Notes: generated by a model not told the origin, from the letters alone. A DNA stretch of 64,000 nucleotides from Candidatus Reconcilbacillus cellulovorans (GCA_002507565.1 MOXJ01000012.1:1035-65034); one strand, 5' to 3'. Positions 28,094 through 44,502 are shown, numbered from the stretch's first letter. Translations and numbers: made by a program.

Positions 28094-28768
28094 TCATATC
28101 CAAAGGCTGACGTACCACGTTAAAAGCGCCTCGCCCCAGACGAACGCGGCCAACGCGCCCAAGGAGAGAAATGGGCCAAACGGCAAAAATATAGATCGAT
28201 CGCCGCCCGACGCGGCAATCCGGAACAGACCGTACAGACTGCCGGCCGCCGAGGCGAAAAACAAGCACAAGAACGCGAGCTTAAGTCCCAAAACGGAACC
28301 GAGCGCAAACATCATCTTCACGTCGCCGCCGCCGACGCCTTGCCGGCGTCCGAAACGCTCAAACGCCAGCCCGACCGCAAACAACGCCGCCGCTCCGGCC
28401 AACGCGCCGAGAGCGTAATGCCAAAACGGCTCGGGGCGAACGAACAGCCGCAACGCCGCAAACAGCGCCGCAAAAGGAAACACGACGACGTTCAAAATCA
28501 GCCGGCACCTTAGATCCGTCGCCGTACAAACAGCGCAAAAAACGAGAAGTGCCGCTCCGACGACGCGTTCTTCCGTCTCCGATACGGCTGTGAAAATCGC
28601 CCAAAACCAAAAGGCCGTCACCAAACCGACGGCCGTTGTCCAAACCGCTCCGCTTTTTTCTTCATTGCAGTCGTCGCGGAACCGCAAAAGCCGCCTTGCG
28701 ATTTCGTCCGCAGCCGCGCCGATCGCAAAGCCGCCCGCGACGAGGGCCGAACCGACGAAAACCTCCAT
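28094..28768 (-). CDS. pilD: Prepilin peptidase (A24 family), short form without the N-terminal methyltransferase/tetra-Cys region
   Basis: 224 aa, polytopic. The two catalytic Asp motifs are present (CTATDLRCRLI and GGGDVKMMFALG). The first cytoplasmic loop is only about 20 aa and contains a single Cys. Confidence 0.88.
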   Translation of the reverse strand: MEVFVGSALVAGGFAIGAAADEIARRLLRFRDDCNEEKSGAVWTTAVGLVTAFWFWAIFTAVSETEERVVGAALLVFCAVCTATDLRCRLILNVVVFPFAALFAALRLFVRPEPFWHYALGALAGAAALFAVGLAFERFGRRQGVGGGDVKMMFALGSVLGLKLAFLCLFFASAAGSLYGLFRIAASGGDRSIFLPFGPFLSLGALAAFVWGEALLTWYVSLWI

Positions 28769-28792
28769 CCCGCCTTCGCCCTCCGACGCCGC

Positions 28793-29869
28793 TCAGCTGT
28801 CGATCTTCCGTCCGAGCGACTCGCGGGACGAAGAGATCGAAAGCGATTGCGACAGCGCCAAACTTTTTTCCAGCCATGTGTTCAGCTGACGGAAGGTGTC
28901 GATGGGAAGCGAAATCGTTTGTTGGCTGTCGCCGATCGACATCTGAATGATCAGCTCGTTTTCACTTTCGGTGCAGATCGCCCGATAATGTACGGTATTG
29001 CCCTTCCACTCTTCCTGCCATTGGCACATATAACTGCTCGTAAATTGCTTCAACTTTTCATTCCTCCTAAACAGGTTGATAATTTTATTTTCCGTCGCTG
29101 GAATCTGCTCGGACGACTCGGTTTTCGACTCGGTTTGCGTGCTTAGGGTCGCTAGCGGCTCAGGCGCGGTTTCCGGTTCGGCCGCAACGGCCGGTTCCCC
29201 AAAGCCTTCTAGCTCGGGAAGAGCCGGCAATTCCAATTCCTCCTGCTCGCGCCGTTCTATCGTTTCGTCCAACTCGACATCGCTTTCGGCAACTGCCGTC
29301 AACGATTCGTCCAACACTCCGGCATACGCCGCGGGATTCCGTTCGTCGCCTACGCCGCCGGGATCGTCGTTCGTCCCGTCCGCGCCGGCAACACCAACAC
29401 TGGCTTCCGCCGAGGACGAATCAGCGGCTGCGGCCGACGCCGGCCGCGGCAGTTCGATCACGTTGTCGAACTTTTTCATTTCCGCCTGCCGGCGTTTTTC
29501 CAGGGCAGGGATTGCAGTCGTGCGAATTACCTCGTTGACGCGGTCGGGCTTGAAAGGTTTCATCAAATAACCGTTGGCGCCCGCTTTCATGGCGTCGGAA
29601 ATTTGCTCTTGCTGGCTCATCGCCGAACAAACGAGCACGACGGCATGCGGGTCGATCATGCGGATTTCGCGGATCGCCTCGATGCCGTCCATTTCGGGCA
29701 TGGTGATGTCCATAATGATGACGTCGGGTTTCAGTTCCCGGAACAGAGTGACGGCCTGCCTCCCGTTGTCCGCCTCGCCGACGACCTCGTGCCCGGCCTG
29801 GACCAGGATGTCCGTCAACATCTTGCGCATAAACTTGGTGTCGTCGACGACCAACATCCGATACGGCAT
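28793..29869 (-). CDS. CheY-like receiver fused to an acidic linker and an unrecognised C-terminal domain of about 110 aa
   Basis: The ORF track extends this gene to 30034. ATG at 29869 lies 9 nt after AAAGGGG. ATG at 29878 forms an ATGA overlap with the upstream stop codon and is an alternative start. The receiver MPYRMLVVDDTKFMRKMLTDIL...IIMDITMPEMDGIEAIREI...CSAMSQQ...YLMKPF closely resembles B. subtilis CheY. I recognise no motif in the remaining 240 aa. Confidence 0.85.
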   Translation of the reverse strand: MPYRMLVVDDTKFMRKMLTDILVQAGHEVVGEADNGRQAVTLFRELKPDVIIMDITMPEMDGIEAIREIRMIDPHAVVLVCSAMSQQEQISDAMKAGANGYLMKPFKPDRVNEVIRTTAIPALEKRRQAEMKKFDNVIELPRPASAAAADSSSAEASVGVAGADGTNDDPGGVGDERNPAAYAGVLDESLTAVAESDVELDETIERREQEELELPALPELEGFGEPAVAAEPETAPEPLATLSTQTESKTESSEQIPATENKIINLFRRNEKLKQFTSSYMCQWQEEWKGNTVHYRAICTESENELIIQMSIGDSQQTISLPIDTFRQLNTWLEKSLALSQSLSISSSRESLGRKIDS

Positions 29870-29874
29870 CGTCG

Positions 29875-31683
29875 TCATCCCCTTTCTACTTTGGCGACAA
29901 AAATGTTCAGACCTTCCGTTATCGGGATTCCCGTCGGCGGCTGCTCGTACAGCAGGGCGTCGTGATAAATTTGCAGGCGCGACGTTTCGAACGGCAACAC
30001 CTCCTGATCCGGCTGGATGTTGGGTCCCGGCCACGAAGGTCCGGCATATTCGATCGGAGGTTCTCCTCCCATACTCGGCGGCTCGCCGCGCACCGCGTGC
30101 AGTTCGACGGCCGTACCGCCGGGGTTTTCGCCGTGAATCCCTCCGGAAATAAACAGTTTCGACACGACGCCGTACATCTTCACCTGGCGCTTGGAGAATA
30201 GAAAAGCACGGATCTCCGCGTCCGCGTTCCGTTCGTTGGTGTTGTCGCCGAGCACGACGTTACTGGAGGCGACCAACACAAGTGGAATCGGCGTTCCACC
30301 GCTCAGGCCGTTGATCGAGCGCATTCGCTTCAAATCGACATCCCCGTCGACGTAAACCGTGCCGCGCAACCGGATATCGCCGAAAATCGTCAAGTTGCCT
30401 TTAATATACATGCTTCCGTCCGAAAGTTCAAAACCGTCGTTGAAAAACACGTCGCCCTCAATGTATGCGAACTTGTCGGGCGGAAGCACGATCTTTCCCG
30501 AAAGGTCGGCGGCGATTTGCTGGGGCGCGGTCAATTGGACGAAAAGCGATCCGTTCTGCAGTCGAAGCTCCGGCACCCGAGCTCCACCCGTTCGCTGTAA
30601 CCGCAGCGAACCTTCTTTGATAAGAAGATCGGCGCTCGAAGAAGAACTCGTCCCAACCGTCAGCACGCTGCCGTCGATCACAAGTGATGTATTGGAAAAA
30701 CGGACGCTGCCGGAAAGCCAGTCGGTATCGGATGAGACCACATGTTCGAATTCGCCCTCGGGCCAATCCAGATCAAAAGATTGTCCTTCCCGCATCGCAA
30801 AAACGGATGACTTGCGCGCGACATAATCTGCCGGACGCAATTCGGGGTCGTCGGATTCGAGCGATAAATCTTCAAACGGAAACATTTGCGACGAAAAATA
30901 GCCAACGTCGAAATCACGGGACGAATGCGTCGTGCGCGAATACGGACCCGACGTCTCCGACTTAAAAAAGCGATCGCCTCCGGGCGTCCGGCCGTCGACG
31001 CGGATAAACCCCCGCAACGCCGGAAAATCCGATATAAAGCCGTATAACGAACCCGGCGCGCTGATGACCTGCGCCTCGTTGGCAACGCGCAGGTCGCCGT
31101 CGCGTACGAGCACGTCGCCGACGATATACGGCGAGCCGTTCAGCGACAAGTCGCCGCGCGCGCTGACGGGATACCGGAAAACGGGGTGAACCGTTCCGAC
31201 GTAGACCGTCATCGTCTTGGCCACGGATACCGACGGTCGTCGATCGAACGATCCGATCGACCGAACGACGATCTTGCGGACGTAGGGAACGTCGGGATCG
31301 GTCTCCGGACGGCCCGCCGGACTCGACGTTTCGCGGTTTTCCAGCACTTCGAGACGATACTTTCCACTCTGGACGGCGTATTCTTTCCCGTCCCAGGCGT
31401 CGACGGCGTCCAATCTTGAACTTGCCAGCGCGACCGCGTCGCGGTAAACCAGACCGGCGTTGTTGATGTCGTCCGCGACTTTGCGGATTTGGGCCAAGAC
31501 GCGGTCGAGCCCGCTTTGAGCAAGCATTTCCGCCCGAACCGCCGCCTCCGTCGACGCCGTCCGGACGGCGCTTTCTCGAACGACGCCAAGCAAAACAAGT
31601 CCGACGATGCTGATGACCGCCAGGGCAAACAGCGCCACGGCCAACGCCGCACCCGACTCCGAAACTGTCGAACGCCGCGGCAC
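29875..31683 (-). CDS. Large PilX_N/GspK-like minor pilin (602 aa) with a predicted beta-helix-like body
   Basis: GTG start behind a GGGGGGAA SD. The N-terminus SESGAALAVALFALAVISIVGLVLLGVV resembles the PilX N-terminal/GspK hydrophobic segment (no Glu5). The C-terminal part has repetitive GD-x-hydrophobic segments (IEGDVFFNDG, IKGNLTIFGDIRLRGTVYVDGDVDL). Confidence 0.65.
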   Translation of the reverse strand: MPRRSTVSESGAALAVALFALAVISIVGLVLLGVVRESAVRTASTEAAVRAEMLAQSGLDRVLAQIRKVADDINNAGLVYRDAVALASSRLDAVDAWDGKEYAVQSGKYRLEVLENRETSSPAGRPETDPDVPYVRKIVVRSIGSFDRRPSVSVAKTMTVYVGTVHPVFRYPVSARGDLSLNGSPYIVGDVLVRDGDLRVANEAQVISAPGSLYGFISDFPALRGFIRVDGRTPGGDRFFKSETSGPYSRTTHSSRDFDVGYFSSQMFPFEDLSLESDDPELRPADYVARKSSVFAMREGQSFDLDWPEGEFEHVVSSDTDWLSGSVRFSNTSLVIDGSVLTVGTSSSSSADLLIKEGSLRLQRTGGARVPELRLQNGSLFVQLTAPQQIAADLSGKIVLPPDKFAYIEGDVFFNDGFELSDGSMYIKGNLTIFGDIRLRGTVYVDGDVDLKRMRSINGLSGGTPIPLVLVASSNVVLGDNTNERNADAEIRAFLFSKRQVKMYGVVSKLFISGGIHGENPGGTAVELHAVRGEPPSMGGEPPIEYAGPSWPGPNIQPDQEVLPFETSRLQIYHDALLYEQPPTGIPITEGLNIFVAKVERG

Positions 31684-31686
31684 GGT

Positions 31687-32202
31687 TCATTCCCCCCGTC
31701 CTACCGGTATGCGCGAACGGATGTTCAGCACGGGCGACGTCGCGCCGACCGGCCGATACTCCAGATCGATCACCACATGATGATGACCTTCGGCGATCAG
31801 TTTCCCCGAGGAAATTTCAAAAGCAGGTGCAAGCGCGAACACTTTCGGCGGACCGGACGGCATAATCGGATCGACGCGGATTTGCCCGCCGTCGAATCGC
31901 ATTTCATACCAGGCGATATACTGTTTCGGATCCGCAGACGGCTTGACGAACCGAATCGACCGCTGCGTCGTATCGGCCTGTTCGACGTAAATCGCGTCGC
32001 CCAGCTCGGTCACGATGCGGCTGAAAAGCAGGTCGCCCTGGTTGCGCATGGTCGTTTCGATCGTAACGCGCTTGTAGATGGACATCGCCATTAAGACGAA
32101 CGAGTAGATGATCGTCGTCACCATCGTCATGATCATGAGCGCGACCAACGTTTCAAGCAACGTCAGGCCCCGTTCGTCTTTCCGCCGACCGATTCGCCGC
32201 AT
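31687..32202 (-). CDS. Minor pilin with prepilin-type N-terminal cleavage/methylation motif (GspJ/PilW-like)
   Basis: 171 aa. The N-terminus is MRRIGRRKDERG|LTLLETLVALMIMTMV, with Gly at -1, Glu at +5 and a hydrophobic helix. Confidence 0.82.
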   Translation of the reverse strand: MRRIGRRKDERGLTLLETLVALMIMTMVTTIIYSFVLMAMSIYKRVTIETTMRNQGDLLFSRIVTELGDAIYVEQADTTQRSIRFVKPSADPKQYIAWYEMRFDGGQIRVDPIMPSGPPKVFALAPAFEISSGKLIAEGHHHVVIDLEYRPVGATSPVLNIRSRIPVGRGE

Positions 32203-32209
32203 GTTCCGC

Positions 32210-32677
32210 TCATCCTTTCGCGATCATCGCGTCGACATAGGTGGACAGGCGCGGCACGGCGGCGGGAGAAACGGCGCCGGCCTCCGCCCAGAAGACGCGG
32301 ACGGTCATCGCGATCAGCCGTTCGTCCGCGTCCGGCCGCAACACGACCTGATAGCGGTAAGTCGTGCCGTTGATCACCGTATCGTTCAAAAGTCCGGCCA
32401 ACGGGCCGGCAGAAGCGGCGGTGAACGTGGCGGTGCCGGCCGACGCGACATAGGCGCGAAGCGGGTCGTACTCAGCCGGTTTTTTGAACGCCTCGCGGAG
32501 TTCCGCCGCCTTGTACCTCGCCAGATGAACCGCGATCGTCCGACGGTTCTGTTCTGCCGATCGTTCCATTGCCGACAAGATGTAAGCGGCCATCGTCACC
32601 GTCACCACGCTCATGATGATAACGGCGATCAGGATTTCGACCAGGGTCAAGCCGGATTCGCCGCGAAGCCGGCGCAT
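32210..32677 (-). CDS. Minor pilin with prepilin-type N-terminal cleavage/methylation motif (GspI/PilV-like)
   Basis: 155 aa behind a strong GAAAGGAGGGAGA SD. The N-terminus is MRRLRGESG|LTLVEILIAVIIMSVV. Confidence 0.82.
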   Translation of the reverse strand: MRRLRGESGLTLVEILIAVIIMSVVTVTMAAYILSAMERSAEQNRRTIAVHLARYKAAELREAFKKPAEYDPLRAYVASAGTATFTAASAGPLAGLLNDTVINGTTYRYQVVLRPDADERLIAMTVRVFWAEAGAVSPAAVPRLSTYVDAMIAKG

Positions 32678-32717
32678 CGTTTCTCCCTCCTTTCGCGACG
32701 GAAACCGTCATAACGCT

Positions 32718-35096
32718 TCAGTACCGCTTCTGATTGTAATCAAGGTCAACGCGAAGCGGCGTCGGCAGCGTGATCGTGACTCCGTCGTCGTCGACGAGGC
32801 GCAGAAAGACGTAATAAGTTCCCCTCGTCTGTCCGGGAGCTGTCGTCACGCGGAATTTCAGCGCGTTCAGCTTATGCCAGTCGCCCGGTTGCAGCCGTGC
32901 CGCATCGGACTGTGTCGAAACGGCGTAATACATTTCCACGACCCGGAATCCCGGCTGATTGAAACGCGGCGTCACCGGATGCGATGTTCGGACTTCGACG
33001 AGCACCGGCTTATCGCTCGGCGAACCGGGCGAGCTCGGATCGAGCGCGACCAGCGAGCCTTGCGGGCCGGGATTGACGACGAACAACCCGGGACCGGCCT
33101 GCGCACTGCCGCCGGTCGACGTCGCCTCGACGCGGATCCGGTGCCATCCCCACCGAGCGGAAGCATCCGGATATACGTCGCTCAGGCGGAACGACGCCGT
33201 ATAGACGTTGCCGTTTTGTTGAATACCTGAAGCGTCGACGACGAGCGACGGCGACGAAGCGTCGTCCAACCAGACGCGTATGCGCGTGACGGGGCTGCTG
33301 TCTTCCGTGGCGACGACCGTGATCCGGCCGTCGTCCGCCGGCTTCGGAATATCGAACTGGAATGCGACCTGCGGCGGCGTGCTGTCAAGCAACACCGTCT
33401 GCCGGTAGGCGTTGCCGCCGATCGGGAACCCCGCGATCGCATTCGTGACGGCGCGTGCCTCAACCGTGACGGAACCGTCGGGCAACGCGACGGGTCGGCC
33501 GGGCATCCAGTTCGTCCAAACGCCACCGTTTATCCGGTACTGATAACCGGCGATATAATTCGCGCGGAAATCTTCGTTCAAATATTGGGTTTCAGGCGGA
33601 AGACGGCCCGCCGAACCGGAAATCGCGGTCACCTTGCCGGGGCCGAGATGCCAACCGGACGAGAGAATCTGTCCGCCCGCACCGTCGGTGAGCTGAAGCG
33701 ACGGCGCCGTCGGCGTCAACGTCCAACGCTTCACGTCGCCGTTATGGTAGCGCACCGCGACGATCGTGTCGTCGGCGATCCCGTCGCCGGGATCGGCGTC
33801 TTCAAACCAGATGTCCCGCACTCCGCCGGTACCGCTGGCGGGAATACGCCACTGCGCGGCTCCGTCGCCGGCGCGGTAACGCGTCACCGTTCCGTCCGCT
33901 TCGCCGACGTACGTATTACCATAGCGGTCGACGGCACGGACATAGACTTGCACCGATGCACCCAGCTTGATGTTGACCTCGCGCACCTGGCCGCAATCGT
34001 CGAGGTAGCGCACGACAGCGTCGGTCAGAGTATAGTTGCCGGAACCTGGCGGCGGCGTGAGCGAGACGGTCACCGTTTTTTCGGAACCCGGCCCGAACGG
34101 ATAGACGAAACTGCCCAGCACGTCGATGACGACGACGCCGTTTTCCAACCGCACCGTCGACGGATTGTCTCCGGACAGAGAAAAACCGTTCGGCAACGGT
34201 TGGCGAACGACCGTCGACGTAATCGTACCGTTCGACTGGATTTCTTCCGTAATCGCTTCAAATACGCTTTCCAATTCGGAGGTATCGCCGGCCTGATACA
34301 TCTTGCCGCCCGTTTTTTGCGCGATCTGTTGCAGCAAGTTCAGGTCGACATCTTGCGAACCCGGTTGGGCAAGCGCGATCGTATAGACGACAATGTTGCG
34401 GTTTTTCATCGAATCGGCGTCGGCGAGTGCTTCTTGACGGGCTTTTGATTCGTCGTACTTAGCTTTCCCGTCCTTATTGTCCGTATAGTAGTTCGCATAG
34501 CCGTCCGTCAGTAAAATCGCCACGCGCATCCGGTTCTGCGGCGAATTTCTAAGCATTTCTTCTGCCAATGTCAAACCATGGTCGATATTCGTATATCCAT
34601 TTGCATAAAAATTGTTAATTTTGTTCCTTATATCACCGTAATTTGTAGTTAACTGACTTTCAACCGAGGCAGTCGTAGAAAACTTGATCAATCCTACCCG
34701 GTCGCCGGCGTTGGCCGCTTGAATTTTGTCCAGGAGCCGTTTGGAGGCCTTCTTCAGCGCTAGAAGACGGGTATCCTCGCCGGTTTGAGGCCTTTGGTTA
34801 TAAACCCCATAATTCATACTGCCCGACACGTCCAGCACCAACGCGATATCCGCCGGCTGGCGCGACGGCCGCGGCGGCGGCGGGCTGCCCGACGGCGTCA
34901 GCGTATACGTGATACGCACCGTTTCATCGGAAGCGACCGACGATTTTTCGACGACGGCCGTTCCGGTCAATTGAAAGTGCGGCGTGCACGACGGATCGGC
35001 CGCTGCCGCACCGGACGGGACGACGCCGATAAGCGTCATCGCCAGTACCAGCACAAACAAGGCGGGAAACGCCCGATAACGCCGTTTTGCCTTCAT
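32718..35096 (-). CDS. Secreted 792-aa von Willebrand factor A (vWA) domain protein, candidate pilus-associated adhesin
   Basis: It has a Sec signal peptide (MKAKRRYRAFPALFVLVLAMTLIGVVPSGAAAA) and a MIDAS motif (DIALVLDVSGSM at aa 83-94) within a vWA fold of about 190 aa. A long beta-rich C-terminal region follows. I saw no LPxTG and no prepilin motif. Confidence 0.8.
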   Translation of the reverse strand: MKAKRRYRAFPALFVLVLAMTLIGVVPSGAAAADPSCTPHFQLTGTAVVEKSSVASDETVRITYTLTPSGSPPPPRPSRQPADIALVLDVSGSMNYGVYNQRPQTGEDTRLLALKKASKRLLDKIQAANAGDRVGLIKFSTTASVESQLTTNYGDIRNKINNFYANGYTNIDHGLTLAEEMLRNSPQNRMRVAILLTDGYANYYTDNKDGKAKYDESKARQEALADADSMKNRNIVVYTIALAQPGSQDVDLNLLQQIAQKTGGKMYQAGDTSELESVFEAITEEIQSNGTITSTVVRQPLPNGFSLSGDNPSTVRLENGVVVIDVLGSFVYPFGPGSEKTVTVSLTPPPGSGNYTLTDAVVRYLDDCGQVREVNIKLGASVQVYVRAVDRYGNTYVGEADGTVTRYRAGDGAAQWRIPASGTGGVRDIWFEDADPGDGIADDTIVAVRYHNGDVKRWTLTPTAPSLQLTDGAGGQILSSGWHLGPGKVTAISGSAGRLPPETQYLNEDFRANYIAGYQYRINGGVWTNWMPGRPVALPDGSVTVEARAVTNAIAGFPIGGNAYRQTVLLDSTPPQVAFQFDIPKPADDGRITVVATEDSSPVTRIRVWLDDASSPSLVVDASGIQQNGNVYTASFRLSDVYPDASARWGWHRIRVEATSTGGSAQAGPGLFVVNPGPQGSLVALDPSSPGSPSDKPVLVEVRTSHPVTPRFNQPGFRVVEMYYAVSTQSDAARLQPGDWHKLNALKFRVTTAPGQTRGTYYVFLRLVDDDGVTITLPTPLRVDLDYNQKRY

Positions 35097-35131: not shown

Positions 35132-36358
35132 TTAAAGTTTCAGCATTCTGGAGATCACGGCAAACGCTTCGGCCCGCGTTAATAGACCGTCCGGGCGGAA
35201 CGTGCCGTCAGGATAACCGCCGATAATCCCTGCAGCGGTCACCCGTGCAAGGCTGTCGCGCAAGCCTTGCGGCAAACCGCCGGTATCGCGGAATGCCAAC
35301 GCGGCCGGTTGCGGCGAAACATTCGCGGATCGCATCGCGGCGTCCGTCCATTGCGCCATTTCGATGCGGCGCATGTATGCGTTCGGTTGGAACAGCGGCG
35401 AAGACGGCGTCGTCGACAAGATCCCTTTCCTCTGAAGCGCTTCGACGATGGAAGAAGCCCAATGATTTTCCAAATCGGTGTACGCTTTCGCCTTAGCTCC
35501 CGCCGCTGCCGAAAGACCGAGCGACCGGGCGAGCAGCGCGGCGAATTCGGCGCGCGTCAGGCGTCCGTCGGGACGGACGGTGCCGTCTTCATATCCTTCG
35601 ATAATCCCGCGTTCCATCAGATCGACGACGACCTCTTTCGCCCAATGGTCGACGATATCCGCGGGAAGACGGCTTAACGCCTTGCGCTTGGTAAGGGCGG
35701 CGGAAAACGCGGGAACTTTCTGCGGTATGTCGTCCTGCCGCCGGATTTCTTGCGGATTCGTATCGGTATCGACGTCGGAATTCCCGAAAACGTCGCCGTA
35801 CAAGCTGAACACCGTGCCTTCACGGACTTTCGGGACGTTTCGGCGCGCCGCCTCGGCATCGGTCGGAATGTCGGCCCATGGCATGACTCCCAGATAGGAG
35901 CGCGTTTTGAACGCTTCTTGGGATTCAGCCGCGAAAAACGAACGGACGGAACTGTCGATATCGGTCACGGCGTAAACGACTTTGCCGCTTGCATCGACCC
36001 ACAGTTCATCCCAGCCTGCTGCCAGATCGTTACCGCTGCGCGAGACGACGCCGGTCCAGACGCGCACATAGGCGGGCCGGTCTTTCGCAGGCGCTTCCAG
36101 CACGACGGCGTACGGATCGGCCGACACGACCGTTCCAGGCGCCCATCCGTCGGTATTGAACGTCGCAGTACGATAAATTTGCAGTCGCTCCTCCGACGGT
36201 TTTCCGCGAGCCTCGGCAAACGGTGAAAAGCTTGCTCCGAACGCTTCTTTCGGCATCGGCCACAGCGCCCACCAAGCCAATAAGGATAAAACGACCGCCC
36301 ACGCCACAACGGCGCAAACCGTCATCCGGTCCCTGCACAACACCGCGGATTTCGTCAT
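35132..36358 (-). CDS. Membrane-anchored protein with three C-terminal S-layer homology (SLH) repeats
   Basis: 408 aa. It has an N-terminal transmembrane segment (CAVVAWAVVLSLLAWWALW) and an unknown domain of about 190 aa. Three SLH-like repeats follow (DIVDHWAKEVVVDLMERGIIEGYEDGTVRPDGRLTRAEFA; YTDLENHWASSIVEALQRKGIL; GLRDSLARVTAAGIIGGYPDGTFRPDGLLTRAEA). The start codon lies 1 nt after the pilT stop. Confidence 0.78.
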   Translation of the reverse strand: MTKSAVLCRDRMTVCAVVAWAVVLSLLAWWALWPMPKEAFGASFSPFAEARGKPSEERLQIYRTATFNTDGWAPGTVVSADPYAVVLEAPAKDRPAYVRVWTGVVSRSGNDLAAGWDELWVDASGKVVYAVTDIDSSVRSFFAAESQEAFKTRSYLGVMPWADIPTDAEAARRNVPKVREGTVFSLYGDVFGNSDVDTDTNPQEIRRQDDIPQKVPAFSAALTKRKALSRLPADIVDHWAKEVVVDLMERGIIEGYEDGTVRPDGRLTRAEFAALLARSLGLSAAAGAKAKAYTDLENHWASSIVEALQRKGILSTTPSSPLFQPNAYMRRIEMAQWTDAAMRSANVSPQPAALAFRDTGGLPQGLRDSLARVTAAGIIGGYPDGTFRPDGLLTRAEAFAVISRMLKL

Positions 36359-37448: not shown

Positions 37449-38108
37449 TCACGGCTCGGGTCCGACGCGAATCGGCATCGGATCGGGGAAAAACGTTTTC
37501 AGGTCAGGCGCATAATACGCGCTCAGCGTCAATTGACAGGTATACAATCGTTTGTCGGCATTCAACTTGACCGGCGGAGCGGCGTCCGCCTGCAGCTCGA
37601 CCCGGTCGATCCGGACGAGCCGCCTCATGGTCTGGATTTCCTCCAGCAACCGCCTGATTTGCGTCCATTCGCCTTTAACCGAGGTTTTCAGCTGAAGCTG
37701 TGCAACCGTTGGAGCCGCCGACGGCCGACCGTTCTCCTGTCCGCCCGTCTGGGAAGCAGGCGTATCGGAACCGGTCGAGACGGGCTGGAAATTGTAGTCC
37801 GAAAACTGAAGACGCGTCACCGACTCCAGCATGCGCAGATCCTGAACGAGCCGGTCGCGGTAAGGCTCTTCCGGAACGGCCTCACGCACCTTTTCCAGTT
37901 CAACGCGGACTCTGCCCGCCGACTGCTGTGCAACATTCGGACGGGCGGTCAGCAGTTGAAATTCTTTGCGTTTTTGTTCCAACTGCGCATTCAGATCGGA
38001 CCGCCGTTCTTGCAGCGGCATGATCCACCATACGTAAACGCCTGCCGCCAGAAGCGCGACGATGACAAACAACCCCCAACGCAAAAGCGGCGTATTCGGC
38101 ACGCTCAC
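37449..38108 (-). CDS. pilO: Type IV pilus assembly protein PilO-like
   Basis: 219 aa with a GTG start in a GTGA overlap with pilN. It has one N-terminal transmembrane segment followed by a coiled coil (LQERRSDLNAQLEQKRKEFQLL). It sits after pilM-pilN. Confidence 0.72.
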   Translation of the reverse strand: MSVPNTPLLRWGLFVIVALLAAGVYVWWIMPLQERRSDLNAQLEQKRKEFQLLTARPNVAQQSAGRVRVELEKVREAVPEEPYRDRLVQDLRMLESVTRLQFSDYNFQPVSTGSDTPASQTGGQENGRPSAAPTVAQLQLKTSVKGEWTQIRRLLEEIQTMRRLVRIDRVELQADAAPPVKLNADKRLYTCQLTLSAYYAPDLKTFFPDPMPIRVGPEP

Positions 38109-38791
38109 GTCCGGCTCGCCCCCCCTTGCGGCGACGCCGTCGGCGTGTTCGCTCCCGTCTGCGGCGCCGGAGTCGGGTTCGGGCTTATACTCGGACTCGG
38201 CGACGGCTGGATAATGCGGATGCGGATCGTCGCTTGTACGACGGGCAGCCAGTCGCCTGCCGGAGAAGCCGGCGCCAACGATGGAGTCGGAAGCGGCACG
38301 CGGGAGACGCCCGTGATCTCTACACCGGCAAACGTCGGTTCCTGCCGCAGCGCTTCCACTCCGCGGACAAGCGCGTCCGCCGTCGCGAAGCCGACCGTCA
38401 CCGTCATTTCTTTGCCGTCAAAGTAAACAAGGCCGTTTAAATTCGAGTAAGCGGGCAGTTTGGCGATTAGCCGATCGAGAACGTCGGTCGCGGACGGACC
38501 ACTGCCGCGAAGGACGGACGGTAATGCAAGCCATTCGGCGACCGTGGTTTCCGATATGGTGTTGTTCCGCGCCTTCAACAACTCGTCGATGCGCGCCTGC
38601 ATCGCATTGAGCTCCGCCTGCGTCGTCCGGACGTCCCGATCGGCGTCGTACCAAAGCCAGCCGGTCACGCCGAACGCGACGACGGCGAACAGCGCCAGAT
38701 ACACGACCCACGGGATCGTCGGCGACGAGGGGGTTCGCGTCAAATCCTGCAACAGATTGATTTCGATGGAACGAAATTTGACGGGTTCCAT
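38105..38791 (-). CDS. pilN: Type IV pilus assembly protein PilN-like
   Basis: 228 aa. The conserved cytoplasmic INLL motif (RSIEINLLQD) is followed by a transmembrane segment and a coiled coil. The C-terminal tail is Pro/Ser-rich. Confidence 0.75.
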   Translation of the reverse strand: MEPVKFRSIEINLLQDLTRTPSSPTIPWVVYLALFAVVAFGVTGWLWYDADRDVRTTQAELNAMQARIDELLKARNNTISETTVAEWLALPSVLRGSGPSATDVLDRLIAKLPAYSNLNGLVYFDGKEMTVTVGFATADALVRGVEALRQEPTFAGVEITGVSRVPLPTPSLAPASPAGDWLPVVQATIRIRIIQPSPSPSISPNPTPAPQTGANTPTASPQGGASRT

Positions 38792-38809: not shown

Positions 38810-39781
38810 TTACGCCCCTTTCAGCGCCAGACCGATCGCCACCGCATACGGGTCGTACTCCGCGGTGTTTTCGAAAAAAAGATACAACACCCGCTCCATC
38901 GGCAGCGGACGGATCAGCTCGCGGAGCGACTCGTCGAGAAACTCCGGAAGCCGCTTGACTTCCGCATTGTCGAACGCCATGTAAATCCGCCGAATTTCCC
39001 CGTGGTCGGAGGACATCGAATAGCGATAGTAGTTCATCAGCCGGCTCAATTCGATGGACAACGACCGGCCGAACAAAGCCAACGGGTCGCCGCCCTGCTC
39101 CAGCCAGATGTTCCGCGAAGAGCGGAACGAACGGAACAAAACGGGGACGCTGTCGGCGAAAATGCTTACGTCGACGCGCTCGGCTTCGACGTACAGCAAC
39201 ATGAACCTGTCCGGGGCTTCCTCCCCGGTGATCGCCGCGTGCCGAGCGAGCAACCTGAGCAACGCAAGCGGCACGAGATCGACGGCGACCGGCTCGAGTC
39301 CCGCAGAACGGACCGTTCGGACGAGTTCTTCTACGACATCGCGGGGCGTCGCGAAAATGAGCACTTCGTCCTTCCCAGCTTCCGCCGCGGGACCGAGCCT
39401 TACGAAGTCGAATACGGGATTTTGGAACGGCAGCGGCGTTCCCCCGTGCAGGTCGACGTCGATCAAATGCCGCAGTTCGCGGTCTTTAACCGACGGAAAC
39501 GCCGCCTTGCGAAGCGCGACGCTCGACAGCGGAACGGCGACGTTGACGCCGGTTCCGCGCAAATCCGCATCTTTGACCATCGTGCGCAACGCCTCGGCCG
39601 CCGCTTGCGCATCAGCTATGCGCCCTTCGCGCATGCACCCGTCGGGGAGCGGGGCGGAAAATCGCCGGGTGACGGCGACTCTGGAATCGGACGGACGGAT
39701 TTCGACAAGTTTCGCCTCCTGATCCGACAGCGACAGGCCGTAGGCGTACCGGCTTTTTTTCCAGCCCCAGTTGATGCGCAT
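38810..39781 (-). CDS. pilM: Type IV pilus assembly ATPase-fold protein PilM
   Basis: The ORF track extends this gene to 39991, through pilA. ATG at 39781 follows a GAGGAGG SD. The protein is an actin-like fold protein of 323 aa and is immediately followed by pilN. Confidence 0.8.
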   Translation of the reverse strand: MRINWGWKKSRYAYGLSLSDQEAKLVEIRPSDSRVAVTRRFSAPLPDGCMREGRIADAQAAAEALRTMVKDADLRGTGVNVAVPLSSVALRKAAFPSVKDRELRHLIDVDLHGGTPLPFQNPVFDFVRLGPAAEAGKDEVLIFATPRDVVEELVRTVRSAGLEPVAVDLVPLALLRLLARHAAITGEEAPDRFMLLYVEAERVDVSIFADSVPVLFRSFRSSRNIWLEQGGDPLALFGRSLSIELSRLMNYYRYSMSSDHGEIRRIYMAFDNAEVKRLPEFLDESLRELIRPLPMERVLYLFFENTAEYDPYAVAIGLALKGA

Positions 39782-39879: not shown

Positions 39880-39881
39880 GA

Positions 39882-40376
39882 TTACGGCGTGTTGCTCGGT
39901 GACGGCGATGTGCCGCCGCCAATCGACACTGTTTTAATTTCTTCTTCGGTTTTGTTATCAAAGTATTTGGTATTTCCACTAGCATCAACAAGCGTAATAC
40001 GATAGGTCAGACTACCATTGCTTGAATTTTGGGTAACAGTTACTTTAGTTGCTGTTGGATGGTAAGTGCTGTTGTTGGTTCCTTGCGGGTCTTTAGGCTC
40101 TTTGTCCAAATATCCCGCACTTACAATCTGTTCCAGAGTAATTGTTTGCACGTTTCCACCTGTTGTATCGGGATTAAACCCTTCCGTCGTCACTTTAAAC
40201 CGTGCACCGTCAATAATCATTTGGGCATTCGCGCGGTGCGCCTCTTTCTTCGTCTTATTGATAATCCCACCGATCGACGGAATGGCGATCGCCGCAATGA
40301 TCGCCAAGATGACGATAACCGCAAGCAATTCGATCAACGTCAAACCGCGCTGATCGCGGTACAGCCGTTTGAGCAT
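39882..40376 (-). CDS. pilA: Major type IV pilin (prepilin-type N-terminal cleavage/methylation domain)
   Basis: ATG at 40376 follows an AAAGGAGGA SD and gives MLKRLYRDQRG|LTLIELLAVIVILAIIAAIAIPS. The protein is 164 aa with no Cys and has a GGGTSPSPSNTP tail. In-frame upstream ATGs at 40454 (strong GGGAGGTGA SD) and at 40493 (ATGA overlap with pilC) are alternative starts. Confidence 0.88.
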   Translation of the reverse strand: MLKRLYRDQRGLTLIELLAVIVILAIIAAIAIPSIGGIINKTKKEAHRANAQMIIDGARFKVTTEGFNPDTTGGNVQTITLEQIVSAGYLDKEPKDPQGTNNSTYHPTATKVTVTQNSSNGSLTYRITLVDASGNTKYFDNKTEEEIKTVSIGGGTSPSPSNTP

Positions 40377-40489
40377 CGAAAATCGTCCTCCTTTTCCGTT
40401 GGATTCGTGATACTGTCGATTTCGCAACAGCCGTAACCGGCTTCGCTTGTTCATCTCGTTCACCTCCCTTCCGGTGTGTGTTTCGGGTT

Positions 40490-41701
40490 TCATCTCAAGA
40501 AATTCTCATACATCTTGAACATCGGCGACATCATCGCGGCGACGATGACGCCGACGACGGAAGCGACGACGAGCAGCAACAGCGGTTCCACCAATGCTTT
40601 CAGGCGGTCGACGCTTTGTTCCACGTCGTGTTCGTAAAAATCGGCGATTTTGGCAAGCATTTTGTCGATTTGGCCGGTTTCCTCGCCGATGACGAGCATC
40701 TGCACCACCATCGCAGGAAAAAAACCGCTTTCCGCAAGCGGCTGCGACAGCCACTTGCCCTCGCGCAACCGCTCACCGGCCAGCGCAAGAGCGCGGGTAA
40801 TCGCGGCGTCGCCGACAGCCCGGGCCGTCACCTCGAGCGCTTGCAAAATCGGCACGGCGCCGGACAGAAGCGACGACAACGTGCGGGCCATGCGCGCGAT
40901 CGCCGCTTTTTTCATGACCGGCCCGAAGATCGGCAGGCGAAAACGGACGATCCCCCACCATACCTTCCCTTTTTCCGACTTGCGGATCAACCGGAAAACG
41001 ATCCAGAGCCCGGCCGCAAGCGGTAGCACGAGCCACCATACTTTTCCCGCCAACCGGCTTGCGCCGATGACGGTTTTCGTGATCCACGGCAATTCGGCGC
41101 CTTGTTCGGCGAACAAGCTTTCGAACGTCGGCACGATGCGTACGAGCAGAAAAATGACGACGCAGATCGCAAGAACGAGAACGACGATCGGATACGTCAT
41201 CGCCGACTTGACTTTCTGGACGATCTTGTGCTCGCGCTCGTAATGGTCGGCCATTCGGTCGAGCACGTCGTCGAGCGTGCCGCCGGCCTCGCCGGAAACG
41301 ATCATATTGACGAACATGTCGGGAAAAATCGATTTATGGTCGGACATCGCCTCCGACAGCTGCCGGCCCGTCCGCACCTGATCGGCGACGTCGGCGATCG
41401 CCTGACGCAATTTGCGGTTTTTCGTCTGTTCGACAAGAACCGCAAGCGACCGGTCGATCGGAACGCCGGCGCGAATCAGGGTGGCGAACTGTCGGCTGAA
41501 CATGACGAATTCCGACAGCTTGACGGGACGGCCGATCTGAATGTCGCGGTTCCACACCGACGGGCGCGCTTCTTCGACTTTGCGCACCGACAGGTTTTGA
41601 CTGCGCAGTTCCGCGACTGCGGCGTACTTGTTGATCGCTTGAAGCGTACCTTTCACTTTTTTACCGCTTTCGGTCACCGCTTCGTAGGAAAACAACGGCA
41701 T
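40490..41701 (-). CDS. pilC: Type IV pilus platform protein PilC (GspF family)
   Basis: The ORF runs 40490-41731. ATG at 41701 follows a GGAGGAGGGG SD and gives MPLFSYEAVTESGKKVKGTLQA. Two T2SSF repeats with transmembrane segments are present. Confidence 0.9.
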   Translation of the reverse strand: MPLFSYEAVTESGKKVKGTLQAINKYAAVAELRSQNLSVRKVEEARPSVWNRDIQIGRPVKLSEFVMFSRQFATLIRAGVPIDRSLAVLVEQTKNRKLRQAIADVADQVRTGRQLSEAMSDHKSIFPDMFVNMIVSGEAGGTLDDVLDRMADHYEREHKIVQKVKSAMTYPIVVLVLAICVVIFLLVRIVPTFESLFAEQGAELPWITKTVIGASRLAGKVWWLVLPLAAGLWIVFRLIRKSEKGKVWWGIVRFRLPIFGPVMKKAAIARMARTLSSLLSGAVPILQALEVTARAVGDAAITRALALAGERLREGKWLSQPLAESGFFPAMVVQMLVIGEETGQIDKMLAKIADFYEHDVEQSVDRLKALVEPLLLLVVASVVGVIVAAMMSPMFKMYENFLR

Positions 41702-41747
41702 CGCGGCCCCTCCTCCGCCCAACGGAAGCAAAACCGTCAGGTTCGCC

Positions 41748-43466
41748 TTAATCCTCGGCGACGGCGCGCAACACCTCTTCGACGGTCGTCAACCCGAAGC
41801 GCGCCTTGGAAAGACCGTCGAACAGCATCGTCCGGTATCCCTGTTCAGACAAATAACGACGCATTTCGTCGACGGGGCGGTTCTGGGCGATCATCCGCCG
41901 CAGCGGCTCGTCCACGGTCAGCACCTCGTGAATGGCGATCCGCCCCCGATAGCCAGATTTGTTGCAGCTAGAACAGCCTTTGCCGCGCCAGACGGTCGCC
42001 GGCTGATGAACGAACGACAGGCCGACGCCGCGACCGCCGGCGGCGTTTTTCGCCTCGGCCGACACGAGGCCGTGCGCTTCGAACAACCGGATTTCTTCCG
42101 GCTTTGCGGCGACTTGCTGGCCGCACTCCCTGCATACGCGCCGGACGAGACGCTGCGCCACGACGCAGACAAGCGACGACGCGATCAGATACGGATCGAC
42201 GCCCATGTCGACCAGCCGCGTGATCGTGGCGACCGCGCTGTTGGTGTGAATCGTGCTCAGGACAAGATGGCCGGTCAGCGACGCGCGTACGGCGATTTCC
42301 GCCGTTTCGACGTCGCGGATCTCGCCGACCATGACGATGTCCGGGTCCTGGCGCAAAATCGACCGCAGCCCGGAAGCGAACGTCAATCCGATTTGCGCGT
42401 TCACCTGCACTTGCGTGATGCCGGGCAGGCGGTATTCGACCGGATCTTCGATCGTGATAATTTTCAGCTCGTCGCTGTTGATCTCGTTCAGGACCGAGTA
42501 GAGCGTCGACGTTTTCCCGCTGCCCGTCGGCCCGGAAATGAGAATGATGCCGTTCGGTTTCCGGATAACTTTCGAAAAAACGGAGAAGTTGTCTTCACTC
42601 AGTCCGAGTTCGGACAATTTTTTGATGCCGGCCGACTGATCGAGCAGACGGAGAACGATGCTTTCGCCGTAAACGGTCGGCAGCGTGGATAAACGGATGT
42701 CGATCCGCCGGCCGTCGACCTGCATCTGGATCCTGCCGTCCTGCGGCAGGCGCCGCTCGGCGATGTTGAGTTTGGCTAAAATTTTGAGGCGCGTCGTCAA
42801 GGCGTCCTGCAAATGTTTCGGCAACGCGCGCTCCGTGTAGAGCACGCCGTCGATGCGGTATTTGACGACGACCTGGCGTTCCTGCGGATCGATGTGAATG
42901 TCGCTGGCCTGGCGCTGGACGGCCGCTCGGATGATCTGGTCGACGAGCTTGACGATCGGCGAATCCGCCGCCAAGAGCGACTCGTCCTCCGCGTCGGCGT
43001 CGGCCGCACCGCCGCTTTCTTCCAGGTCGAGCCATTGCTCCAGCTTCTTCATCCCGTAATAGCGGATGATCGCCTGCTCGATGTCGCTGCGAACGGCGAT
43101 GACCGGCTGGATGCTCATGCCCGTCGCCATTCGAATTTCTTCGATCGCTTCGTAGTTCAGCGGATCCTCCATTGCTAGCTTCAGCTTGCCGTGCTTGCAG
43201 TCTACCGGGATGACGCAATGCTTTTTGGCGAGTTCTTCGGAAACCCGCTTGACCGCCTGCAGATCGGGCGGCGTTTCCTGCAAGTTCACGACAGGAAATC
43301 CGAGCTGAAACTCCAAAACTTCGACAAGCTGCCGCTCCGTGATCCAACCGCGTTCGACCAAAATGTGGCCGAGTTTTTTCTTCGTATCGGCCTGCACCCG
43401 AATCGCTTCTTCCAGTTGGCTTTCGGTGATCAGGCCGTTCATGACCAGCAACTCCCCGAGACGCAT
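41748..43466 (-). CDS. pilB: Type IV pilus extension ATPase PilB (GspE family) with an N-terminal MshEN-type domain
   Basis: The ORF runs 41748-43511, with ATG at 43466 behind AAAGGGGG. The N-terminus is RLGELLVMNGLITESQLEEAIRVQ, followed by a second copy of the motif. It has Walker A (SGPTGSGKTSTLYS), VGEIRD and a tetra-Cys cluster (CRECG...CSSCNKSGYRGR). Confidence 0.93.
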   Translation of the reverse strand: MRLGELLVMNGLITESQLEEAIRVQADTKKKLGHILVERGWITERQLVEVLEFQLGFPVVNLQETPPDLQAVKRVSEELAKKHCVIPVDCKHGKLKLAMEDPLNYEAIEEIRMATGMSIQPVIAVRSDIEQAIIRYYGMKKLEQWLDLEESGGAADADAEDESLLAADSPIVKLVDQIIRAAVQRQASDIHIDPQERQVVVKYRIDGVLYTERALPKHLQDALTTRLKILAKLNIAERRLPQDGRIQMQVDGRRIDIRLSTLPTVYGESIVLRLLDQSAGIKKLSELGLSEDNFSVFSKVIRKPNGIILISGPTGSGKTSTLYSVLNEINSDELKIITIEDPVEYRLPGITQVQVNAQIGLTFASGLRSILRQDPDIVMVGEIRDVETAEIAVRASLTGHLVLSTIHTNSAVATITRLVDMGVDPYLIASSLVCVVAQRLVRRVCRECGQQVAAKPEEIRLFEAHGLVSAEAKNAAGGRGVGLSFVHQPATVWRGKGCSSCNKSGYRGRIAIHEVLTVDEPLRRMIAQNRPVDEMRRYLSEQGYRTMLFDGLSKARFGLTTVEEVLRAVAED

Positions 43467-43560
43467 CGTCGCCGGCCCCCTTTCGCGCGCGTTCGTTTCA
43501 GGCCGCTCCAATTACACCGCTTGATCCCATTTCGCCGTAAACGGCGGGGGGATGGTGCCG

Positions 43561-44502
43561 TCATGCGCCTGACCTTTGCCGCTCCTCGCCGGACGGTGCC
43601 CTCCTGATGATTTCCGGGCGGGGTGCGTAATAGTCTTTCGAAATGATCACCTGTGCTCCGTTCTGCCGGCGCGCCAGAACCGTCACGTACAGCCCCGGCC
43701 TGCCCGCCTCGCGCACCGTCTGGCCTTCCCGTAGGGCAAAGTCGACAAGCATCAACGTCGAAGGAAGAACTTCTTCCGTCTTCACTTCGATCTCCGGAGC
43801 AGCCCATCCCGGAGACGGCAAGCCCGAGAACAAAACGACGGTCTTGTCGCCTTCCCGACGGACATCAAGCGTGACTGCAAAATCGAACGGATTATAAAAC
43901 GTCAAATTTCGTCGACCCGGCTCGAACATCGCGTCAAACCCCGGCGTAACATAAGTCGGCATTTGCGGATGCAGGTGCCGTTCGCCGGTTATCAGCCCTG
44001 CCCGGACCGCAGCCTCATAGAGAAGCGAGGCGACCTGCGACATTGCGGTTTCGGATGCCGAACCGACTGACTGCAGTTTGTCGCGGTAGACTTCCTGTAG
44101 CGAAAAGGCTTCGCCCGGCTTCAACGACATTCCTTTCAACGCATCCAACCATGCCGTCGCCTGCTGTTCGACAACAGCAAAACTCCTCGCCTCGGCGAGC
44201 GTTCTCGCCGAAGCCTGTCCGGAAGACAGCGCGGGTTCCGTCTGCCGCTGCGAACGGTCGGGCGAGGCCTGAGGCTTCGGCGCGACCGACGCCGATGCCG
44301 GTGAAGGACTTTGCGCCGTCTTCTTCACCGGCGAGACGCCCGACAACCATCCCGGCCGATCGAGCGCACCGAGCGACCAGGCGGAATATAACAAGAAAGC
44401 AGTTACCATACCCGCCAAAGCAACAATGGTAAGAACGATCCCCCCGCGCGGACGCCGGGAGACCGTCGAACGCGCATTCGTTCGCCTTCGCCTTGGTTCC
44501 AC
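43561..44502 (-). CDS. Membrane-anchored VanW-like domain protein, first gene of the pilus operon
   Basis: 313 aa with a GTG start behind GGGGGA. It has an N-terminal transmembrane segment and a Ser/Pro-rich linker. The segment SQVASLLYEAAVRAGLITGERHLHPQMPTYVTPGFDAMFEPGRRNLTFYNPFDFAVTL runs parallel to the VanW/YoaR core (CQVS.TL.NAAL.AGLEIVER..HS..V.Y...G.DATV....DLKF.N). Confidence 0.65.
   Translation of the reverse strand: MEPRRRRTNARSTVSRRPRGGIVLTIVALAGMVTAFLLYSAWSLGALDRPGWLSGVSPVKKTAQSPSPASASVAPKPQASPDRSQRQTEPALSSGQASARTLAEARSFAVVEQQATAWLDALKGMSLKPGEAFSLQEVYRDKLQSVGSASETAMSQVASLLYEAAVRAGLITGERHLHPQMPTYVTPGFDAMFEPGRRNLTFYNPFDFAVTLDVRREGDKTVVLFSGLPSPGWAAPEIEVKTEEVLPSTLMLVDFALREGQTVREAGRPGLYVTVLARRQNGAQVIISKDYYAPRPEIIRRAPSGEERQRSGA

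Follow-up and report, generated by a model that had tools for sequence, protein, structure and literature searches.

We examined a type IV pilus gene cluster in a 64,000-nucleotide (nt) stretch of DNA, referred to here as the window, from Candidatus Reconcilbacillus cellulovorans (GCA_002507565.1 MOXJ01000012.1:1035-65034), a monoderm endospore-former of the family Paenibacillaceae. Together with one regulator gene, the 15 closely packed open reading frames (ORFs) that we counted at positions 28094-44502 of the minus strand probably constitute the operon of a dynamic T4a-like type IV pilus, and a Paenibacillaceae-specific subtype of it with a fixed accessory module. As judged from sequence, the cluster is complete and self-contained; it includes the retraction ATPase PilT and lacks a secretin. 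Its accessory genes for an S-layer homology (SLH) protein, a von Willebrand factor type A (vWA) protein and a CheY-type fusion are, by the same kind of evidence, genuine conserved members of the cluster and not chance neighbors, because they occur in the same order in every lineage in which we found the operon (approximately nine). The original prediction placed sixteen co-directional genes within these coordinates. All of the genes that it named are present there, on the minus strand and in the order given, and the count is 15; a sixteenth conserved gene lies outside, at 44593-45432.

The genes of the core pilus machine are readily recognizable for the most part. These include the extension ATPase PilB (41748..43466; T2SSE 2.8e-137, MshEN 1.5e-21), the platform protein PilC (40490..41701; two T2SSF domains at 4.4e-67 and matches to GspF and PilC models at 1e-103 to 1e-110), the retraction ATPase PilT (36360..37433; TIGR01420 490.5 bits against a cutoff of 319.1, with the Walker A motif GPTGSGKST and the AVANLIRQ motif present), and the prepilin peptidase PilD (28094..28768; Peptidase_A24 6e-16), which keeps both catalytic Asp motifs. 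At its N-terminus, PilB carries tandem 24-residue MshEN motifs separated by a 5-residue spacer, RLGELLVMNGLITESQLEEAIRVQ-ADTKK-KLGHILVERGWITERQLVEVLEFQ, which make up a predicted cyclic di-GMP (c-di-GMP) site. NF053729 matches residues 17-69 with 73.3 bits against a cutoff of 38, a match at the level of sequence only, and the predicted site is intact. The GspG-like major pilin PilA (39882..40376; N_methyl 1.2e-8, gspG 1.2e-8) has an 11-residue leader that ends in QRG and a cleavage site G/LTLIE, which would produce a mature form of 153 aa with no cysteine.

An alignment complex of PilM, PilN and PilO is encoded as well. PilM, the actin-like cytoplasmic component, is well supported (38810..39781; PilM_2 2e-21, TIGR01175 2.4e-27), and the PilO/GspM-like protein matches weakly (37449..38108; T2SSM_b 4.5e-6, PilO 1.7e-5, GspM 3e-9). 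The PilN-like bitopic protein (38105..38791) has no family match in Pfam or NCBIfam, so that the name given to it in the original prediction stands on its conserved position, its N-terminal IEINLLQ motif and the weak PF05137 PilN matches of its orthologs in two clusters, L087 and L094. The reading of PilMNO plus PilT as a T4a-like dynamic pilus held up, as did the lack of a secretin, since no cluster protein matches a secretin family of Pfam or NCBIfam, and we regard the pilus as probably retractile. In the window, PilN also ends in ~35 residues rich in Pro, Ser and Thr, a tail missing in its orthologs, and PilA has the C-terminal end GGGTSPSPSNTP; both could be linker or glycosylation segments.

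The cluster is compact. The widest intergenic gap is 113 nt, between pilC and pilA, and all others are smaller; a 4-nt GTGA overlap joins pilN and pilO, and an ATGA overlap joins the genes for a 602-aa pilin-like protein (p602) and the CheY-type receiver fusion, all of which agrees with the spacing and overlaps first described. The G+C content of the cluster (~0.57-0.63) is the same as that of its flanks. The sixteenth gene (44593..45432, minus strand) encodes a one-component regulator of the LuxR/GerE type whose N-terminal sensor domain is DhaR/MimR-like (GerE 3e-12 plus a DhaR N-terminal match) and is separated from the VanW-like gene at the head of the cluster by 90 nt. A LuxR/GerE homolog is also found directly upstream of the VanW-like gene in clusters L087, L095, L098 and L099/L100, and thus the conserved unit comprises 16 genes and extends past 44502. 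A promoter-like site is present at 44596-44567, and there are no convincing internal terminators in the cluster, in a scan whose promoter and terminator counts were close to those of shuffled controls, which makes it uninformative. Rfam returned no riboswitch or other RNA element over 26-47 kb, and thus a C. difficile-style c-di-GMP riboswitch is not supported.

We compared the cluster with those of other species. The same gene order occurs in approximately nine lineages, with protein identities of 24-78%, and these include every full-length homolog of the vWA and SLH proteins with a readable context. Orthologous clusters were found in Paenibacillus sp. Soil750 (L086), assembly GCA_004565445.1 (L087), P. 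koleovorans (L090), and the metagenomic lineages L091, L094, L095 and L096-L098; in P. cremeus, the SLH and vWA proteins are encoded on one contig. Identity to the window proteins is lowest for PilN and PilO (24-35%) and reaches 63-72% for PilT. An identical PilT protein is encoded on contigs from 26 metagenome blocks, and PDO10600.1 of Candidatus Reconcilbacillus cellulovorans falls into the 90% sequence cluster of the vWA protein and has the same length. Full-length homologs of the vWA and SLH proteins are few, and the SLH orthologs group into only about nine sequence clusters.

The original prediction had suggested a survey of pilT neighborhoods in Bacillales. Our comparison sample, taken as unbiased, consisted of 80 pilT neighborhoods of other species among the matches listed in a genome-collection PilT scan, the best match being 59% identical. 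Hidden Markov models of the SLH protein's N-terminal domain, the C-terminal region of the vWA protein and the C-terminal domain of the fusion matched none of these 80 loci. Likewise, a metagenome scan with the SLH N-terminal profile recovered only six loci, all of which are full clusters. By these searches, the accessory domains are exclusive to the Paenibacillaceae subtype.

The vWA protein (32718..35096, 792 aa; VWA 5e-21) is Sec-secreted, as its N-terminus, MKAKRRYRAFPALFVLVLAMTLIGVVPSGAAAADP, is of the Sec type. It has no N_methyl match and no class III pilin signal or module. Its C-terminus (...RVDLDYNQKRY) lacks an LPXTG motif, and no sortase gene is present in the cluster. In Pfam it matches VWA and VWA_2 only; the PilY1 propeller (IPR008707/PF05567) is missing, and no PilY1 structure was found among the top 50 Foldseek matches. 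The residues of the metal ion-dependent adhesion site (MIDAS; DxSxS...T...D) are intact, with D89, S91, S93, T169 and D198 invariant in five orthologs. An AlphaFold2 model (predicted local distance difference test score, pLDDT, 79) has the vWA domain nested in a beta-sandwich that is followed by about five more beta-sandwich domains, and the best PDB matches of this model in Foldseek are PitA (2.7e-20), SpaC (4.6e-19), Mfa5 (4e-16) and S. sanguinis PilB (1e-13). The nesting of vWA in immunoglobulin (Ig)-like domains is therefore of the type seen at the tips of sortase-dependent pili, with Foldseek values of 2.7e-20 to 1e-18 against 7w6b, 6m48 and 6m3y. Two identities were considered for this protein and rejected, that of a PilY1 because of the missing C-terminal propeller, and that of a modular pilin because of the Sec signal and the lack of a pilin module.

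Given its structural matches to tip adhesins but its lack of a propeller or pilin module, the modeled vWA protein probably works like a pilus adhesin that lies outside both known classes of type IV pilus adhesin. The PilC/PilY1 adhesins of diderm type IVa pili are likewise non-pilin, Sec-secreted proteins encoded beside minor pilins, and P. aeruginosa PilY1 also has an N-terminal vWA domain; the role in common would be that of a tip adhesin or surface sensor. However, the PilC/PilY1 class is defined by its C-terminal IPR008707 beta-propeller (PMC8179133), in place of which the window protein has beta-sandwiches. S. sanguinis PilB (7b7p/7ba2) is also a vWA adhesin of a monoderm type IV pilus with a functional-looking MIDAS, but it is itself a pilin, made with a class III signal peptide, whereas the window protein carries a Sec signal and lacks a pilin module. 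The sortase-pilus tip adhesins RrgA, SpaC and PitA (6m48, 7w6b) provide the best whole-protein structural matches, with vWA inserted in a beta-sandwich and Ig-like domains after it. The window protein differs from them in lacking both LPXTG and a cluster sortase and in being encoded in a type IV pilus operon. Residues C37 and C368 and a C-terminal DY.Q.. motif are invariant over the five orthologs; the cysteines may be joined in a disulfide that clamps the host domain of the vWA insert, and the motif may be a docking tail. In a metagenome assembly of the same species (L083), two separate ORFs of 279 and 527 aa are annotated in place of the vWA gene (12338-14717) and pilA is shorter (139 aa, 7057-7476), which could be strain variation or an assembly frameshift.

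The gene directly upstream of the vWA gene encodes a secreted SLH protein (35132..36358; SLH 6e-31) that consists of a signal peptide, an N-terminal domain and three SLH repeats, with TRAE motifs in repeats 1 and 3. In the window this gene begins 1 nt past the pilT stop, and over all loci the distance from pilT to the SLH gene ranges from -4 to +1 nt. In an AlphaFold2 model (pLDDT 77 overall), the SLH domain corresponds to that of B. anthracis Sap, a binder of pyruvylated wall polymer (3pyw; TM-score normalized to target length, 0.88) and also matches the SpaA SLH domain, for which 6bt4 is a structure with bound pyruvylated secondary cell-wall polymer (SCWP). The N-terminal domain (~150-190 aa) is modeled with pLDDT 80-88 and has no significant structural match (Foldseek, PDB) or profile match. 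A weak Foldseek resemblance to NTF2-like folds (the C-terminal domain of orange carotenoid protein, limonene epoxide hydrolase) had a probability of at most 0.54 and was not relied on. A word-index homology search with the N-terminal domain alone returned no match, even to itself, which is a limit of the index; the full-length query worked. We infer that this protein anchors the machine, or the site at which the fiber exits, to the wall. The gene csaB, expected of a host that makes pyruvylated SCWP, is not evident in the window, in which no search aimed at it was made.

How the SLH and vWA proteins relate to the pilus can be read in two ways. The position of the vWA gene directly before the minor pilin genes suggests that its product belongs to a tip complex, whereas the constant pairing of the SLH and vWA genes suggests a wall-anchored adhesin. 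In its strongest form, the latter would make the two proteins an ordinary wall-anchored adhesin pair that is merely co-transcribed with the pilus genes, the SLH N-terminal domain holding the vWA protein and the pilus working without either. Such a pair would account for a Sec-secreted vWA protein that has no pilin, PilY1 or sortase module, for genes that are always adjacent, and for an SLH part that is a standard wall anchor, and the conserved DY.Q.. end of the vWA protein could be the docking tail that it calls for. However, in each lineage examined the two genes lie mid-operon, with pilT on one side and the minor pilins on the other, and translation of the SLH gene is coupled to that of pilT. 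Outside such clusters, neither specific domain was met in the 80 listed pilT loci or in the metagenome scan, and the vWA gene directly precedes the minor pilins just as pilY1 does in diderm operons. Hence, we consider a separate wall-adhesin pair improbable, and favor a vWA protein that serves the pilus.

The minor pilin genes follow. Both the 155-aa product of the first (32210..32677), which is weakly PilV/GspI-like (N_methyl 2.6e-4; PilV 1.8e-6 over the N-terminus only), and the 171-aa product of the second (31687..32202; N_methyl 4.4e-6), which is kept in all orthologous clusters, have processing sites, G/LTLVE and G/LTLLE, respectively. PilA and these two proteins thus share class III signals with G-1 and E+5 at G/LTL.E sites. 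The third protein, p602 (29875..31683), has a hydrophobic N-terminal helix without Glu+5 and a probable beta-helix body. It belongs to no Pfam family and has no T2SSK or PilX match; its N-terminus weakly matches Verru_Chthon_A (9.5e-4), its body gives a weak profile match to the FwdC beta-helix, and its L086 ortholog weakly matches Bactofilin. In profile searches against the PDB, the two minor pilins matched pilin N-terminal helices only, and p602 had one weak beta-helix match. By position, p602 is a candidate PilX/GspK/PilK-type tip subunit, the likeness being positional and N-terminal only. Homologs of p602 are found also in ordinary Bacillales clusters (L003, L002, L001). The GspI, GspJ and GspK labels of the original prediction are right in that these are pilin-like genes, two of them with E+5; the names themselves are loosely supported, as p602 lacks E+5 and a T2SSK match.

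At the head of the cluster is a gene for a membrane-anchored VanW-like protein (43561..44502; Pfam VanW PF04294 1.2e-11, 44.6 bits against a cutoff of 27), in which a transmembrane segment and a linker precede a VanW domain and a G5-like C-terminus. VanW domains were identified in 2024 as L,D-transpeptidases with a Cys-His-Asp triad, and Cys-to-Ala mutants lose cross-linking and retain some carboxypeptidase activity (PMC11348318). The window protein has no cysteines at all, and ETAMSQV stands at the place of the canonical GGGLCQV. We aligned five pilus-linked proteins with two canonical ones (Deinococcus and Rubrobacter, both GGGLCQV), and the residue in the Cys column is Ser in the window, L086 and L001, Val in L087 and Asn in L004; judged by eye, Ser is also at this position in L090 and L002. 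The catalytic Cys is therefore missing in all seven of the pilus-linked VanW proteins examined, which have no PG_binding_4 domain, and since the nucleophile is missing, the VanW-like protein should be unable to cross-link peptidoglycan. The His and Asp positions are retained in the window-type clusters, but not in the Bacillaceae proteins. In Metabacillus (L001), L002 and Ureibacillus (L004), too, the gene immediately before pilB codes for a VanW plus G5 protein (Pfam), and thus a membrane-anchored VanW protein that is, as predicted from its missing cysteine, transpeptidase-dead heads type IV pilus operons across the Bacillales. Compared with the C. difficile L,D-transpeptidases Ldt4 and Ldt5 (PMC11348318), the pilus-linked proteins share the domain family, the membrane-anchored extracellular topology and the G5-like C-terminus, but lack the catalytic Cys and PG_binding_4. 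A function of the gene in vancomycin resistance, or as an active transpeptidase, was rejected because the nucleophile is missing.

The CheY-type fusion (28793..29878; Response_reg 1.2e-30, best NCBIfam match CheY) is composed of a receiver, an acidic and Pro-rich disordered linker and a C-terminal domain of ~80 aa. The phosphorylation residues of the receiver are conserved among orthologs (VVDD, MDITMPEMDG, CSAMS, KPF). The C-terminal domain has no family match and 30 relatives among 1.84 billion representative proteins, and nine of ten relatives tested have a receiver domain. Outside the 16-gene clusters, the fusion gene lies immediately 3' of a pilB-like gene (MshEN plus T2SSE) in four of four readable contexts (L092, L093, L101, L102), which ties the fusion to the extension ATPase. 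In three orthologous clusters, a 419-aa chemoreceptor gene (HAMP plus MCPsignal) that is not present in the window directly follows pilD (L086, 17891-19150; L090, 18463-19722; L094, 11975-13234). Given the linkage of the fusion to pilB and these chemoreceptor genes, it is reasonable to suppose that pilus extension is under chemosensory control. The Pil-Chp regulators PilG and PilH and PilB cofactors such as FimX (PMC11656802) likewise involve CheY-type receivers with a genetic tie to a type IV pilus and, by inference, to its extension ATPase. However, PilG and PilH are single-domain proteins and FimX has a PAS-GGDEF-EAL architecture, whereas the window fusion has a disordered linker and a rare ~80-aa domain.

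Several observations on relatives of the fusion and of the chemoreceptor genes can be added. In L093 (8312-10891 and 16075-20891) and L101 (1-6894), a pilB-like gene and a receiver-C-domain gene form orphan pairs at most a few kb away from Tad/Flp loci (RcpC, TadZ-like ParA, TadA, TadB/C, Flp, TadE), and the Tad pilus there may be served or regulated by a PilB-type ATPase that has a response regulator to itself. A further observation concerns L092 (8500-11997) and the P0161 contig. In L092, the pilB-like gene is in two pieces, a 103-aa MshEN fragment and a 375-aa ATPase, and after it come a receiver-C-domain gene and a class C beta-lactamase-like gene. The pilus locus of P. thiaminolyticus is reported to have a truncated pilB and a linkage to a beta-lactamase (PMC9765702), and L092 recalls both. 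The gene next after the chemoreceptor gene in L086, L090 and L094, on the opposite strand, is a DUF5658 gene.

The filament itself could in principle be something other than an external pilus of this type. PilA, PilB, PilC and PilO score similarly against GspG, GspE, GspF and GspM and against pilus models, and a GH8 (glycoside hydrolase family 8) gene is located near the cluster in the window and in L091, as might be expected of a type II secretion-like pseudopilus that pushes proteins (the vWA protein, glycoside hydrolases) through the wall with no external pilus. However, PilT is intact here and absent from type II secretion systems (PMC9765702 Table 4), PilM is of the pilus type, GspC, GspD and GspL are missing, and the closest relatives among the matches listed are Bacillota pilus clusters, which leaves the pseudopilus very improbable. 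A DNA-uptake pilus is more improbable still, for while the Com pilus is one of the type IV filaments known in monoderms (PMC7212644) and ComG models weakly match PilB, PilC and the pilins, the ComGA/ComGB scores are far below the PilB/PilC scores and their own cutoffs, Com systems have neither PilT nor PilMNO, and an adhesin together with regulators of the chemosensory type speaks for adhesion or motility.

Under the reading that we prefer, a dynamic T4a-like pilus with an accessory module, the parts would work together as follows. PilD would cleave the prepilins, the three minor subunits would prime the filament, and the E5-less 602-aa protein would cap it. PilB, activated by c-di-GMP, would extend the fiber via PilC and PilMNO, and PilT would retract it. 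The vWA protein would act as an adhesin that binds its ligand via the MIDAS, most likely at the pilus tip on the minor-pilin complex; it would be analogous to PilY1 or to the S. sanguinis PilB pilin, by means of a third architecture that resembles that of sortase-pilus tip adhesins. The SLH protein, whose gene is coupled to pilT, would bind pyruvylated SCWP, and its N-terminal domain would tie the machine or the fiber exit site to the wall. The cysteine-less VanW/G5 protein would bind, and at most trim, peptidoglycan stem peptides at the assembly site and would not cross-link them. The CheY-type fusion would be phosphorylated by a chemosensory kinase and act on PilB through its C-terminal domain, and the LuxR-type protein would control transcription of the operon. 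Such a pilus would likely be used by the cell to attach to plant biomass and to move over its surface.

One can go further and imagine that the SLH protein and the cysteine-less VanW/G5 protein form a wall-embedded outer part of the machine, in which the dead L,D-transpeptidase marks or loosens peptidoglycan and the SCWP-anchored SLH protein is a collar or bearing for the fiber, a stand-in for the secretin/PilP/TsaP layer of diderms, with the vWA protein following a third route of adhesin loading to the tip. We put this forward as a speculation that is more apt to fail than to hold.

Several points weigh against the reading of a dynamic pilus with a fixed accessory module. Candidatus Reconcilbacillus cellulovorans is known solely as a metagenome-assembled genome, and the roles assigned to the accessory proteins come from gene linkage, domain identity, models and analogy. 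The structure models have pLDDT values of 77-79, which is moderate confidence, and were built from 5-8 sequences. The vWA protein has no recognizable carrier module, be it a pilin N-terminus, a PilY1 propeller or an LPXTG motif. PilD in the window is ~35 residues shorter than all of its orthologs, the cytoplasmic CxxC...CxxC loop (four Cys; Pfam A24_N_bact) having been deleted, and it might cleave prepilins without N-methylating them. Finally, the VanW-like gene and pilD are not in place in L091, the most divergent cluster, which indicates that neither is obligatory in cis.

The primary clusters of clostridia, in the order pilA1-pilB1-pilC1-pilMN-pilO-pilV-pilU-pilK-pilT-pilD in C. difficile and with the pilB2 operon in C. 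perfringens, provide the first point of comparison. Like the window, they encode monoderm T4a-like systems with an MshEN-bearing PilB, PilC, PilM/N/O, PilT and PilD, a GspG-like major pilin, three minor pilins including a large one without E5, and no secretin. In the window, however, pilT is located mid-operon and is followed by the SLH and vWA genes, the receiver fusion precedes pilD, the VanW-like gene is at the head, and the regulator is of the LuxR type. The second comparison is with the ordinary Bacillales operon, which has the order pilB-pilT-pilC-pilA-pilD-pilM-pilN-pilO in P. thiaminolyticus Mbale (PMC9765702), Geobacillus and Bacillus sp. NRRL B-14911 (PMC3244431). The nearest Bacillales loci among the matches listed, from Metabacillus, Ureibacillus, P. 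qinlingensis and B. alkalicola, have the order pilB-pilT-pilC-pilA-pilD-pilM. Core proteins are shared with the ordinary loci (PilB 50-55% and PilT 55-59% identical to the window), but the gene order differs, and the SLH N-terminal, vWA C-terminal and fusion C-terminal domains are missing from every other Bacillales locus examined. A typical Bacillaceae pilus operon (VanW+G5, pilB, pilT, pilC...), with a PilT 58% identical to that of the window, is also present in an assembly titled Chryseobacterium sp. ISL-80 (L002, JAGGQZ010000003.1), which is probably mislabeled or contaminated.

These comparisons bear on what is new. Type IV pili in Bacillales were catalogued in 2011 as predicted systems (PMC3244431), and in Paenibacillus thiaminolyticus the pilus is a functional virulence factor (PMC9765702). 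Thus, finding such an operon in a spore-former is not in itself new; the original prediction, which named mainly clostridia and streptococci for characterized Gram-positive systems, overstated this point. Likewise, vWA adhesins on type IV pili (S. sanguinis PilB, PilY1), a c-di-GMP-binding PilB and CheY-type regulators are established ideas. The suggestion that the accessory set is undescribed is borne out for the combination, for which we found no open-access paper that describes this gene order or gene set; it is not borne out for every part, as the VanW-like gene also precedes pilB in Metabacillus, Ureibacillus and L002 and the idea of a vWA adhesin is established. In the open-access literature we also found no SLH protein in a pilus operon, no Sec-secreted, sortase-tip-like adhesin in a type IV pilus operon, no receiver-linker-C-domain family, and no report of a missing catalytic cysteine in VanW proteins linked to pilB.

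A 2019 review, which could only speculate on PilO, treats as open the question of how type IV pili get across the thick monoderm wall and brace on it (PMC6916266). The cluster offers two conserved candidates with wall-binding domains, the SLH and VanW/G5 proteins, whose genes are tightly linked to motor genes. Ordinary Bacillales pilus operons, including those of a type found in genetically tractable genera, likewise begin with a gene for a cysteine-less VanW/G5 protein. In addition, the vWA protein would represent a new adhesin architecture for type IV pili, and the fusion a small response-regulator family that travels with PilB-type ATPases and could be a Gram-positive counterpart of the proteobacterial PilB cofactors. 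The host is a pioneer cellulose degrader of a thermophilic compost consortium, described in a paper that does not mention pili (PMC6794216), and an adhesive retractile pilus is a plausible means for such an organism to colonize plant biomass. Cultivable carriers of the cluster exist in P. koleovorans, P. cremeus and Paenibacillus sp. Soil750.

The surroundings of the cluster agree with an endospore-forming host, as first proposed from the neighboring genes: dpaA, dpaB and sleB score above family cutoffs, and a ylxY-like gene and a gene for an FtsK/SpoIIIE-family translocase are also present. Between pilD and a probable rpsO, at 25507-27999 and on the same strand as the pil operon, lie a gene for a LysM-LysM-M14 peptidase, which resembles peptidoglycan stem-peptide endopeptidases, and a GH8 glycoside hydrolase gene. 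A 68% identical GH8 adjoins the divergent cluster L091, on the opposite side, and GH8 plus M14 are absent from the other orthologous clusters. The block 25082-46544 (GH8, M14, the 15 pil genes and LuxR) is flanked by ribF on one side and by the probable rpsO, assigned by size and position alone without a family test, and pnp on the other. Since ribF, rpsO and pnp are neighbors in Bacillus subtilis, the block looks like an insertion between ribF and rpsO/pnp. The flanks of the orthologous clusters are unlike in every species, and thus the pil cluster appears to travel as one unit.

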